From Alphaproteobacteria bacterium (GTDB lineage Bacteria > Pseudomonadota > Alphaproteobacteria > CAAHEQ01 > UBA3637), in the NCBI GenBank assembly GCA_045638265.1, contig JAZUBA010000050.1:41983-105982 (forward strand): a stretch of 64,000 nucleotides of DNA, read 5' to 3'. Below are positions 40,692-43,188 of this stretch, piece after piece. Position 1 is the stretch's first letter. Each line of letters opens with the position of its first letter. Under the pieces are notes generated by a model. It was not told the origin of the DNA. It did not search any database and saw only the letters and a program-made list of their open reading frames with translations. The translations under genes and the position numbers were made by a program.

Positions 40692-41354
40692 ATGAATCAA
40701 ATGAAACCGGAAATGGCAAAAATTGTCAAAGATATGTATCAACTCCCGTTTAACAAAATTCAACCCTCTATTCAGGCAATCAAAAAATTATTAAAAGAAG
40801 GTCATGATATTGATGCACAAAATGAAAAAGGAGATACATTACTTCATGTGGCATTAAATTGTTTTGCATTACGAGGCGGAAATACAATTCAAGCCGGTTT
40901 GCCAAACGAACGTGAAACGGTTTTAGATGTTTTATATTTAACAACAAAGCATCATCCCAATCCGTTTATCAAGAACAATGATAATTTAACGCCATCTATG
41001 TTGGCGGCTCAAACACGATTAACAAACGAATGGCAAATACTTTCATCTTATGAGCGCTTATATCAAGCCGAAAAACAAGATTTACAGGCAAAAGAAACAG
41101 GAAAAGCTTTACTGGGAATGCTTTATTTTATGGCAAATCATTATTATGAACAATACGGGCTTTCAAACGAAAATATTCCAAACGGCATTGATAAAAACAC
41201 AATAGCGGGAGCTGAAATGATTTATGAAACAGCTCAAAAGTTGGGAGCAAATAAGAATATGCCAACAGCACAATTTATAGCAGAGCATATCAATAAAATA
41301 AAGCAAAAACATCATATTTGTAAGCATTTATTCGGAGAGAGAGAAAAATCGTAA
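40692..41354 (+). CDS. Ankyrin-repeat-like protein
   Basis: GDTLLHVALN... and NNDNLTPSMLAA repeat-like segments. Confidence 0.5.
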   Translation: MNQMKPEMAKIVKDMYQLPFNKIQPSIQAIKKLLKEGHDIDAQNEKGDTLLHVALNCFALRGGNTIQAGLPNERETVLDVLYLTTKHHPNPFIKNNDNLTPSMLAAQTRLTNEWQILSSYERLYQAEKQDLQAKETGKALLGMLYFMANHYYEQYGLSNENIPNGIDKNTIAGAEMIYETAQKLGANKNMPTAQFIAEHINKIKQKHHICKHLFGEREKS

Positions 41355-41415
41355 AAAAAAAGCAAAAAAGGTATTGACAAACGAAATAAAAGATGATATA
41401 TTACATATATCTTGA

Positions 41416-41492
41416 CGCGGGGTAGAGCAGTCCGGTAGCTTGTCAGGCTCATAACCTGAAGGTCGTGAGGTTCAAATCCCACCCCCGCAACC
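41416..41492 (+). tRNA. Initiator tRNA-fMet (CAT)
   Basis: CGCGGGGTAGAGCAGTCCGGTAGCTTGTCAGGCTCATAACCTGAAGGTCGTGAGGTTCAAATCCCACCCCCGCAACCA; C1xA72 mismatch; close to E. coli tRNA-fMet. Confidence 0.85.
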
Positions 41493-41496
41493 AATA

Positions 41497-41526
41497 AAGA
41501 AAGCACTCATTTGAGTGCTTTTTTTT
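41497..41526 (+). terminator. Rho-independent terminator after tRNA-fMet
   Basis: aaagcactcatttgagtgcttttttttt. Confidence 0.7.
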
Positions 41527-41562
41527 TGTTGGTTATGGGGAAACAAGTGGGAATTGAGGCGA

Positions 41563-41700
41563 ACGAGCTTCAAGGTCGTGAGGTTCAAGCGAAAGCCCGT
41601 GAGACGACATTTGAAAAATGGCGGACGAACGGATGCGTGCTGAAAGGGACCCATTGTATACAATGGGAATTACCAAATCCCACCCCCCCCCACAACCAAT
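41563..41700 (+). pseudogene. Partial duplicate of tRNA-fMet 3' half plus 12 bp downstream flank, interrupted by an 89-bp insertion in the T-loop
   Basis: cttcaaggtcgtgaggttcaa | 89 bp | aatcccaccccccccacaaccaataaagaaagca repeats 41462-41504. Confidence 0.7.
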
Positions 41701-41778
41701 AAAGAAAGCATCTTTTTATTTTAATATATCTTGAAGATAAAAACCTTATTTTTCAATTTGTTATGCGTTACAGATAAA

Positions 41779-41930
41779 CGTACGTTTATGTGCAACGATT
41801 TCGCCTATAAGCCCAAAAATGGGAGAACATAAGGAAATATCACAAACAAGCCAATGTTTTCAAATCACAAAAATTAAAAAAATAAAAAAAAATACATAAA
41901 AATAAAAAAAACATTGCAAACAAACACAGC
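41779..41930. repeat. IR-bounded element B (distal IR intact, proximal IR degenerate) upstream of gene B
   Basis: cgtacgtttatgtgcaac (41779-41796) then gatttcgcctataag... near-identical to element A interior; right arm cattgcaaacaaacacagc degenerate. Confidence 0.6.
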
Positions 41931-41997
41931 TTCTGCTATAATTAAATTTAAAGAATTTAATTTATTATATAATTTAAATAACAACATGAGAAGTTAA

Positions 41998-43188
41998 ATG
42001 CAACAAGATACAAACGAACGTGGCCGCTCATTAACAGAAATGTTGGGTGTTTTAGCTGTTATTGGCGTCCTTTCAATTGGTGGAATTCAAGGTTATCGTT
42101 ATGCTATGAATAAATACCGTGCCAATAATGTATTAAATGAAATCAATATGGCATCACATCAACTATCAACTATATTGTTGACATCAATGGAAGAACAAAA
42201 GGTTATTTCATTAGGTAATCCCTATGATAACGGAACAATCAGAACAGAAAATTATCCGTTTGATTATGGGTGTGGCAATTATGATAGTTTAGAACGGGCT
42301 TGTCAACAAGCTGAGGAAGGATATTGGATGACTATCGGTGGTATTGAACAAAATCTCTGTCAAAATATACTTTCAAATTCAGAACATTTACCTTATTTTG
42401 TTGAACAACGTCTTAATGAGGAAACAGTAACAGATGATTCAATTTGCGAAGAAGATAATGAAATTATGTTGTTATTCAACTCAAATGGTTCAGGTGAATT
42501 GGCTCCTGATGTTAGTAATAAAGAACTGACGGATGTTGATTGTCCAATCAATACATCAGTTGATGGTCTGGGTGGATATGCTGTAACAGAAATGGATAAA
42601 ATATCCGGAAAAATGATGGATTGCCATTGCACAAAAATGAATACAAAATACGATGGCGATGGTATATGTGTTGCATTACCTGAAAAATGTAAATCAAACA
42701 ATGATTGTAATAAAGGTGATTATTGTGATATTACAAGTTACGGTAGCTCCAATTGTATGACAAATACAACCAGTATCACTGGAATATGCCGAAATGCAAA
42801 AGCCGATATCAGACCCGCCCCATCTAACAACTCATCTCCATTTATTGTTTCTGAACACAAAATGATGTGGTGGGGTGCTAAAAACTTCTGTCAAGCATTG
42901 AAAAAAACATTAGTTGAAGTAAATGATTTTGAATGTGCCCATTCAATCTGCCGAAGCGGATGTACCGCCAAAAGCGGGTATTGTCATGAAGATACATCAA
43001 TAAGTGTATCAACCAAAAGTTCAACGAATATTTCTCCTGTTATGCAAGAATTAAAAAAGGCATTTAGTAGTACATACGGTTGGACAAATTCCAGTTATAC
43101 CAGTTGTAATCCGTACTTTGTTTATTTTTTTGAAGGATACATCTATACAAATGGACCAAATCGTACACATCCTGCCATATGCAAGTAG
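41998..43188 (+). CDS. Family member B: TadE/prepilin-like N-terminus plus cysteine-rich domain with C-type-lectin-like module
   Basis: ERGRSLTEMLGVLAVIGVLSIGGIQGYRYAMNKY; MMWWGAKNFCQALKKTLVEV; conserved N-domain shared with A and D. Confidence 0.8.
   Translation: MQQDTNERGRSLTEMLGVLAVIGVLSIGGIQGYRYAMNKYRANNVLNEINMASHQLSTILLTSMEEQKVISLGNPYDNGTIRTENYPFDYGCGNYDSLERACQQAEEGYWMTIGGIEQNLCQNILSNSEHLPYFVEQRLNEETVTDDSICEEDNEIMLLFNSNGSGELAPDVSNKELTDVDCPINTSVDGLGGYAVTEMDKISGKMMDCHCTKMNTKYDGDGICVALPEKCKSNNDCNKGDYCDITSYGSSNCMTNTTSITGICRNAKADIRPAPSNNSSPFIVSEHKMMWWGAKNFCQALKKTLVEVNDFECAHSICRSGCTAKSGYCHEDTSISVSTKSSTNISPVMQELKKAFSSTYGWTNSSYTSCNPYFVYFFEGYIYTNGPNRTHPAICK

Follow-up and report, generated by a model that had tools for sequence, protein, structure and literature searches.

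Several described systems put the end of a tRNA gene, or a helix derived from a tRNA, to a second use. Islands bounded by tRNA-end attachment (att) repeats, among them cis-mobilizable elements (CIMEs) and tycheposon islands, leave a partial tRNA tail downstream, break in the T-loop and grow by tandem accretion, and the T-loop is reportedly a known crossover place of tRNA-targeting integrases (Williams, 2002). YrlA and tmRNA join a tRNA-derived helix ending in NCCA, with a GGUUCGA T-loop, to a structured domain that is not tRNA. Integron attC sites and CTX attP(+) are built of folded inverted arms with a variable or branched end, form arrays and show no wobble excess. In Salmonella, the Roth laboratory is said to have described tandem inversion duplications that arise by snap-back at quasi-palindromes, and Ponchon and Dardel are said to have engineered tRNA scaffolds for recombinant RNA expression. 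Here we analysed a 64,000-nt stretch of an alphaproteobacterial contig (JAZUBA010000050.1), hereafter called the window, in which the region 41530–41710, shortly after the gene for tRNA-fMet, is one copy of a conserved modular non-coding unit that is kept just downstream of many tRNA genes.

The family to which this unit belongs is found among uncultured gut Alphaproteobacteria, and it is large and undescribed. The full-text literature that we searched contains no description of such elements, and none is in Rfam 15. The organism is bacterial, and genes for the ribosomal proteins L9, S18 and S6 lie nearby. Below we set out the parts of the unit, the covarying fold at its centre and its spread among tRNA genes, and then weigh what kind of element it may be.

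The unit downstream of tRNA-fMet

The tRNA-Met(CAT) at 41416–41493 shows a C1·A72 mismatch in the Rfam alignment, which we take to be the mark of an initiator tRNA. Behind its terminator, the 3' part of the tRNA recurs in both orientations around an insert, in the following order.

41416–41493, + strand: intact tRNA-fMet (CAT), donor of the unit's flanks (ARAGORN; Rfam tRNA, 58.5 bits).
41496–41525, + strand: intrinsic terminator of tRNA-fMet (13 pairs and a T-run).
41530–41555, + strand: left arm, the tRNA 3' end copied in inverted orientation, with divergence (inverted repeats I2 and I8; minimum-free-energy fold; like layout elsewhere).
41556–41588, + strand: inner hairpin, Pa (direct repeat D3, 17/17; inverted repeat I1; hairpin in related units).
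41589–41675, + strand: insert of type 1 (match to covariance model R1 at 41581–41676, 97.1 bits; covariation).
41676–41698, + strand: right arm, a direct copy of the tRNA tail (direct repeat D1; sequence).
41699–41710, + strand: repeated 12-nt 3' flank of the tRNA, ATAAAGAAAGCA (sequence; repeat search).

The direct copy is in two pieces. D3 (41572–41588) is identical to 41459–41475 at all 17 positions and takes in the variable loop, the 5' strand of the T-stem and TTCAA. D1 aligns 41674–41711 with 41473–41510 without gaps at 74% identity and spans the 3' part of the T-loop, the 3' strands of the T-stem and of the acceptor stem, CCA and 12 nt of flank. The two starts of this repeat are 201 bp apart, with no credible open reading frame (ORF) between them. 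The right arm thus comprises T-loop positions 59–60, the T-stem 3' strand, the acceptor 3' strand and ACCA; its acceptor tail is changed by four added C and a G-to-A substitution, as read from the sequence. The CCA of the copied tail ends at 41698 and the repeated flank follows at 41699–41710, beyond which the rest of the terminator after this copy is degenerate. The split second copy of the tRNA 3' part behind the terminator, reported in an earlier note made from the DNA letters alone, is therefore real, and so is the alteration of its acceptor tail. The positions given there were right within about 2 bases, and the insert, put at 89 bp, measures 86–87 nt, running from 41589 to about 41675 with ends that are uncertain by one or two A.

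The 3' half of tRNA-fMet is also present as an inverted, diverged copy at 41530–41572, through which 41530–41700 folds into a single long hairpin with branches (−57.8 kcal/mol, z −3.41; 1 of 200 shuffled sequences was equally good). The inverted repeats are I1 (26 nt, 77% complementary) together with I2 and I3 (20 nt, 80–85%). The left arm begins with TGGTT, the complement of AACCA-3', and pairs with the right arm; the T-run of the terminator and its A-rich lead-in (41496–41525) also pair with the outer arms of the unit (I2–I4). In Pa, a loop separates the antisense of the T-loop and of the T-stem 5' strand from the sense variable loop, T-stem 5' strand and T-loop nucleotides 54–58 (AAGGTCGTGAGGTTCAA). 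The insert is made up of the long irregular stem P1/P2, GAAAGGG as an invariant linker, the P3 hairpin (CCCATTGTATACAATGGG) and AATTACCA as its tail. Neither ARAGORN nor the Rfam tRNA model calls anything in 41530–41700, where both a D-arm and an anticodon arm are absent. A 63-codon ORF that crosses the unit at 41511–41702 was rejected as coding, since the stems covary and the loops vary in length.

Separately, an exact 11-nt direct repeat, ATATATCTTGA, brackets tRNA-fMet and the unit together (41405–41415 and 41724–41734, 319 nt apart), its first copy touching the 5' end of tRNA-fMet. It could be chance in AT-rich DNA or the trace of an older block duplication or insertion.

A conserved insert at many tRNA genes

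When 41 related genomes were searched with the region, the insert itself was matched at multiple places across seven congeneric genomes. Fourteen copies aligned with MAFFT share invariant blocks, and RNAalifold gives them 22 pairs, 10 of which carry compensatory changes. The covariance model R1 of this type-1 insert embraces 58 copies from 51 loci (53 distinct rows), with matches in 13 of 21 genomes of the genus and in 26 of 80 genomes of the order, which equals a single family, spread over 8 of its 16 genera. Standard pairs occupy 94.5% of 952 cells in the 58 copies, as compared with 69.3% after shuffling and 32–40% with slid partners, and 21 of 23 pairs have changed on both sides. The 58-copy alignment was fitted to the model, which favours structure, and the plain MAFFT alignment of 14 copies agrees with it. 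The same insert at the same T-loop position, with compensatory changes in related genomes, excludes chance. The small structured RNA that the earlier note had offered as one reading is thus borne out as far as structure goes, in a conserved covarying fold that lies outside Rfam; its nature as RNA is inferred.

The conserved parts of the fold are distinctive. P1/P2 carries the internal loops GAUAG and UUGCG, P3 is highly variable in length with its closing pairs kept (CCCA and UGGG), and the tail has the consensus AAUWWNC. The 5' stem is modular and in some genera shrinks to GCC-GNA-GGC, giving a form of 51 nt. Loops read on the tRNA-sense strand are GNRA, GNA and CUUG (that is, G-N-(N)-A or CUUG), which identifies the tRNA-sense strand as the folded one. 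The gcgaaagc that had been taken for a GNRA loop sits inside the long irregular stem, where the consensus is GCGAUAGCC and no GNRA hairpin forms. The unit also stands out in composition as a GC island (insert 47%, arms 50–68%; genome 34%, downstream spacer 23%).

The fold matched no described family, neither a known ribozyme nor a riboswitch. Only tRNAs pass the gathering thresholds of Rfam 15 in the window, and with E up to 10 over 41350–42000 the best entry over the insert is STnc300, on the minus strand, at 18.4 bits against a gathering threshold of 80 (E 9.1). Two likenesses seen by inspection were rejected. The GAUA/GU internal loop was read as a k-turn, but its second strand is without tandem G·A; a hammerhead-like GAUGA-stem-GA beside the inner hairpin was compared with the core positions of that ribozyme, of which C3–U4 and A14 are missing, and it has no Rfam match.

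The units are tied to tRNA genes. A tRNA on the same strand lies upstream of 39 of the 58 type-1 copies, 45–98 nt off and farther within arrays; the remaining 19 have no tRNA inside the fetched locus. A pattern of the 3' module found 103 stretches in species-representative genomes, nearly all of which, by record title, are from uncultured Alphaproteobacteria of animal guts, many of them Candidatus Enterousia. One study assigns Candidatus Enterousia to the uncultured order Rs-D84 and reports reduced genomes (PMC12306168). At 57 of 80 fetched pattern loci a same-strand tRNA lies no more than 350 nt upstream, and 16 anticodon types are represented. In 36 of 56 units, the 16 nt that end the neighbouring tRNA recur after the insert without a mismatch. 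The order of parts is tRNA, terminator, left arm (the inverted tail, often with a TGG start), short hairpin, GA, insert, and right arm to NCCA. The short hairpin, present as GAACC-loop-GGUUC in 44 of 57 units, ties up T-loop nucleotides 54–56, and the insert enters at T-loop position 58/59. A terminator-like site lies 3' of 55 of 77 units, versus 5 of 77 shuffled segments.

Of the 16 related tRNA-fMet loci that were printed, 13 have a whole or partial unit. Farther afield, 12 of 301 class-wide genomes contain the frame motif GAYGAGAACC-loop-GGTTCGR, 16 times in all (2 times for a reversed-pattern control), and 8 of 10 inspected places, in other families with small genomes, have the layout of the unit. 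Frames with an uninterrupted T-loop are nearly absent, with two candidates in 80 genomes; the search for such empty frames mostly returned units whose insert starts with GCC.

Units also occur in series and with other inserts. One genome has four units of about 194 bp in tandem after tRNA-fMet, and other loci have two or three. By inspection, at least two further insert types occupy the same frame and T-loop position. One is common at tRNA-fMet loci of the genus and is also found after tRNA-Ser(TGA) in the source genome, and another stands twice after tRNA-Val(TAC) in that genome. A downstream direct copy of the last 16 nt accompanies 3 of the 46 tRNA genes of the source genome. Its two type-1 copies are the one in the window (97.1 bits) and one of 33.8 bits after tRNA-Glu(CTC) (C11:6344–6428, locus L061), which has a variant 5' stem and a decayed right arm. 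In the entries C20:3919–4380 and C77:70936–71300, the direct arm of the tandem units after tRNA-Val(TAC) begins in the anticodon stem, and tRNA-Ser(TGA) is followed by one unit and a truncated second. The point at which the copy turns round varies by tRNA and falls in the T-stem, the variable loop or the anticodon loop.

Two loci have a wider setting of their own. L031 (G012:C8, 1483–3690) has two units of tRNA-Thr type 1.9 kb apart, with an incomplete tRNA-Thr tail ahead of the second unit and two opposite-strand ORFs between the units, as if a larger segment had become trapped by tail repeats. At L120 (G010:C14), a tRNA-fMet locus, a type-2 unit at 230–500 is followed about 0.8 kb downstream by a 446-codon ORF on the opposite strand (1286–2626), which overlaps a reverse-transcriptase-domain match; the other loci have no neighbour of this kind.

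What the unit may be

A tree of 47 copies groups the inserts by tRNA (Thr, fMet, Lys, elongator Met, Glu) across genomes and even genera. It needs 21 changes of tRNA label, compared with 31.1 in shuffles, none of 200 of which was as low. Copies inside one genome differ at about 25% of positions. From the grouping by locus and the divergence within genomes we conclude that the units are old and that each is inherited with its tRNA; clustering by tRNA locus across species further indicates that they are maintained and are not a neutral footprint. In the left arm, opposite G57 A58, GA replaces the expected TC in 37 of 57 units (10 are unchanged and 10 are otherwise), which would put two G·A oppositions at the branch point of the folded strand. 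The GA-for-TC change and the near absence of frames with an uninterrupted T-loop are signs of selection on the scaffold.

These results bear on the explanation that the region is a neutral scar of a lost element once integrated at tRNA-fMet, or a chance duplication followed by a random insertion. Tail repeats with an altered acceptor end, the degenerate terminator after this copy and the missing right arm of the second type-1 copy at tRNA-Glu would all suit a scar. Recurrence of the insert with compensatory changes in 58 copies, the 103 pattern stretches, the orthologous conservation and the GC island make it highly improbable. The earlier note had thought of a footprint of integration and excision, and had reasoned that related loci lacking the duplicate, with no conservation of structure, would reduce it to a neutral scar. 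Comparison gave the opposite: 13 of the 16 related tRNA-fMet loci keep the unit or part of it, inserts cluster by locus, and the repeats enclose neither an integrase nor cargo. The layout may have arisen by recombination at the DNA level.

Another explanation looks downstream, to the following gene.

41998–43188, + strand: gene for a 396-aa protein (ORF; no Pfam match).

The unit could be a cis-regulatory leader of this gene, which encodes a pilin-like protein, begins about 300 nt farther on and has the same orientation; GAAAGGG may in addition resemble a ribosome-binding site. We regard this as barely credible, given that the downstream genes vary from locus to locus while the constant neighbour is the upstream tRNA, and that a terminator-like site follows 55 of 77 units and the gene has a separate promoter-like site at 41914–41942. 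That site lies in the spacer of 23% GC. The 396-aa protein itself has an N-terminus like the leader of a type IV pilin or pseudopilin (GRSLTEMLGVLAVIGVLSIGG) and a Cys-rich C-terminal part.

The reading that we favour, to which we give about an even chance, is that the units form a family of small structured RNAs, each within a scaffold derived from a tRNA. RNA is favoured by loops that are biased to one strand, by the GC island, by terminator-like sites that are conserved and by vertical maintenance without a linked mobility gene. Transcription would run in the direction of the tRNA, either by read-through of its terminator or from a weak promoter overlapping the terminator. The transcript would fold into a four-helix, cloverleaf-like junction of outer helix, Pa, P1 and P3, with conserved purine-rich linkers joining the last three. 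The outer helix, made of the left and right arms, would in well-kept units reproduce an acceptor stem followed by unpaired NCCA, of which the Arg-TCT units are examples. The outer helix and NCCA may then provide ends of tRNA type and stability, while the insert would do the work, its single-stranded GAAAGGG and AAUWWNC and its conserved internal loops binding a protein or RNA partner. GAAAGGG could pair with a CU-rich partner and would fit the usual 3' end of 16S rRNA.

Several observations weigh against this reading. Our read evidence consists of assembled contigs of RNA-library and DNA runs. One metatranscriptome contig covers 41488–41687 at a depth of about 5, and since this equals the depth of the neighbouring gene, the RNA-library contig may come from DNA carry-over; the missing RNA-library cover over 41715–42247 carries no weight. 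A strong terminator separates tRNA-fMet from the unit, and no promoter ahead of the unit in the window passes a consensus scan. By eye, the Arg, Met and His groups show a −10-like TTTAAT inside the T-run, 6–8 nt ahead of the left arm; a promoter overlapping the terminator is an idea only, as it fails the consensus scan in the window. In the insert stems, 16 G-U and 14 A-C stand among 884 Watson–Crick cells; the arms have 9 G-U, 6 A-C and 24 other mismatches. The absence of a wobble excess fits single-stranded DNA as well as RNA. The units contain C(GNA)G mini-hairpins, a form typical of DNA hairpins of very high stability. A recombining DNA element would suit the tandem arrays and the differences in copy number between strains. 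Finally, the outer helix of the tRNA-Thr group has largely decayed with the inner hairpin and insert kept, from which the core, and not tRNA mimicry, seems to be the selected part; imitation of a tRNA end may not be essential.

Some of these observations lend weight to a DNA-level explanation, which we hold to be a possible though clearly less likely one: a miniature, non-autonomous integrative or recombining cassette aimed at the 3' ends of tRNA genes. Its arms would fold on single-stranded DNA into a duplex that imitates a tRNA attachment site, in parallel to CTX attP and integron attC, the insert being the branched variable part or a platform for a recombinase acting in trans, and arrays would grow by repeated integration or unequal exchange. 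The tail repeats that bracket each unit resemble attL and attR, the break is in the T-loop, and several different inserts share one scaffold in tandem arrays. G-U is no commoner than A-C, and C(GNA)G loops are present. In the DNA run X2, a 230-nt contig closes 41673 onto 41473 with a period of 201 and a depth about that of the flanks, 230 nt being approximately the unit length plus the assembler word; it stems either from a circle or from another strain that has the copy in tandem.

Other results sit poorly with such a cassette. The divergence of about 25% within a genome, together with likeness at the same tRNA across species, leaves no recent movement beyond local duplication. On the unit's side of the junction, a full core with an uninterrupted T-loop is missing, unlike in classical attL/attR. 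No recombinase is linked at the inspected loci; the 10 integrase-domain matches of the source genome are all on other contigs, and the genome, 100% complete, has no match to the Y1 transposase (PF01797). By blastn there is no match in 50,697 GenBank phage records or 72,556 PLSDB plasmid records. Two pattern scans of viral contigs gave 0 matches and 1 match. In the single match (L123, 1–400), two or more units whose tRNA tail is His-like stand in tandem where a predicted viral fragment of 22 kb ends, directly after an endolysin-like gene (by sequence reading) and an HNH-type gene; that record has no tRNA called and no integrase, and is most simply read as the host flank of a prophage. A structure kept across vertical descent calls for selection at the level of the host.

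We also weighed an origin by reverse transcription, in which a tRNA was copied from its CCA end (the inverted arm), the enzyme stopped at a modified base and snapped back (the direct arm), and the product recombined beside the tRNA gene, with the insert gained by template switching. The left arm complements the tRNA 3' end, often with CCA, and its TGG start is like a primer-binding site; turn-round points that depend on the tRNA would fit blocks at modified bases, and the insert junction is at position 58/59, where retroviral copying of primer tRNAs stops. We nonetheless think it improbable. Reverse-transcriptase genes are unlinked, being present in 8 of the 26 insert-bearing genomes and in 15 of the 54 others, and the insert is confined to one of the arms. 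CCA is encoded in the tRNA genes here, so that its presence in the copy is not diagnostic. The recurrent TC-to-GA change needs selection, not copying, and a double template switch confined to DNA gives the same layout. As a separate observation, the contig region C76:11123–15309 of the source genome contains reverse-transcriptase and integrase domains interrupted by 5 and 8 in-frame TGA, which suggests either a decayed element or a contig from an element or organism in which TGA is a sense codon.

For the favoured RNA family, we propose that the frame may have arisen through a pair of template switches, at the terminator hairpin and at the hairpin of the T-arm, variable loop or anticodon stem, in the manner of a tandem inversion duplication, with the insert then retained by selection. 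A double switch at hairpins would explain why each unit matches its own tRNA; it leaves the spread of homologous inserts to many tRNA loci unexplained. A bolder version, which we consider unlikely, is that the units act as programmable RNA devices of a new, tRNA-specific class, with the sense and antisense of the neighbouring tRNA 3' end arranged around a conserved sensor or effector fold. Such a device could pair either with itself or with a target (the tRNA, the tRNA precursor or the tRNA gene) and switch between the two states. It would control, protect or mark a single tRNA species, for example as a decoy or guide against enzymes that attack the acceptor end, and copying the tail of another tRNA would create a new unit.

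The units represent a non-coding fold that is widespread and covaries strongly, and their frame has two or more further insert types; the gut bacteria that carry them are little studied and have reduced genomes. As far as we found, they are a new recurrent architecture, in which the tail of a tRNA is reused in inverted and direct orientation as a frame, at more than 20 tRNA species. If RNAs, they would be natural counterparts of engineered tRNA scaffolds and may link tRNA genes to regulation or defence; if DNA elements, they would be miniature cassettes of a new type, aimed at tRNAs and with an attachment site that folds. For annotation, "broken tRNA tails" should not be taken for integration scars by default.

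Comparison with known systems

Some known classes are set apart directly by what the locus contains. With E up to 10, no self-cleaving ribozyme family (hammerhead, twister, pistol, hatchet, HDV-like) is found. An interrupted tRNA with a group I or bulge-helix-bulge (BHB) intron is not what we see, as the copy that hosts the 87-nt insert lacks the tRNA 5' half and the insert is in the T-loop; a group I core would measure about 200 nt or more and sit in the anticodon loop, and BHB introns are archaeal. Palindrome-associated transposable elements (PATEs) of IS200/IS605 or repetitive extragenic palindromes (REPs) do not fit a genome with no PF01797 and only two type-1 copies of dissimilar score. 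ARAGORN finds no tmRNA here, and the permuted tmRNA of the genome is on another contig.

Like att-bounded islands, CIMEs and tycheposons, the units have direct repeats of the tRNA 3' end (D1 and D3; the right arm equals the tRNA tail in 36 of 56 units), a T-loop break and tandem growth. They differ in being about 200 bp long with no recombinase or cargo between or beside the repeats, in always having an inverted tail copy, in the covarying fold in the T-loop, and in vertical conservation: instead of patchy presence with empty sites in relatives, 13 of the 16 related tRNA-fMet loci are wholly or partly occupied. The likeness to integron attC and CTX attP(+) lies in folded inverted arms, a branched end, arrays and the lack of a wobble excess, whereas the units have no linked integron integrase or filamentous-phage genes, are free of genes, imitate a tRNA tail and have the branched part as the most conserved.

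With YrlA and tmRNA the units share a tRNA-type helix with NCCA, the GGUUCGA T-loop and an added structured domain. They have no Rfam match, however, and the 100%-complete source genome has no match to Ro/TROVE (PF05731); their helix copies the adjacent tRNA (at least 16 types), and the extra domain is in the T-loop, whereas in YrlA and tmRNA it takes the position of the anticodon arm. The tandem inversion duplications of the Roth laboratory have the same direct, inverted, direct order with junctions at short palindromes or hairpins, a likeness that concerns origin and not function; those duplications are large, unstable and selected for gene dosage, and the units are about 200 bp, old and always insert-bearing. 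Finally, the scaffolds of Ponchon and Dardel, like the units, house a structured RNA inside a tRNA-derived frame with stable ends. The units are natural, use only the top half of the tRNA and carry their cargo in the T-loop and not in the anticodon stem.

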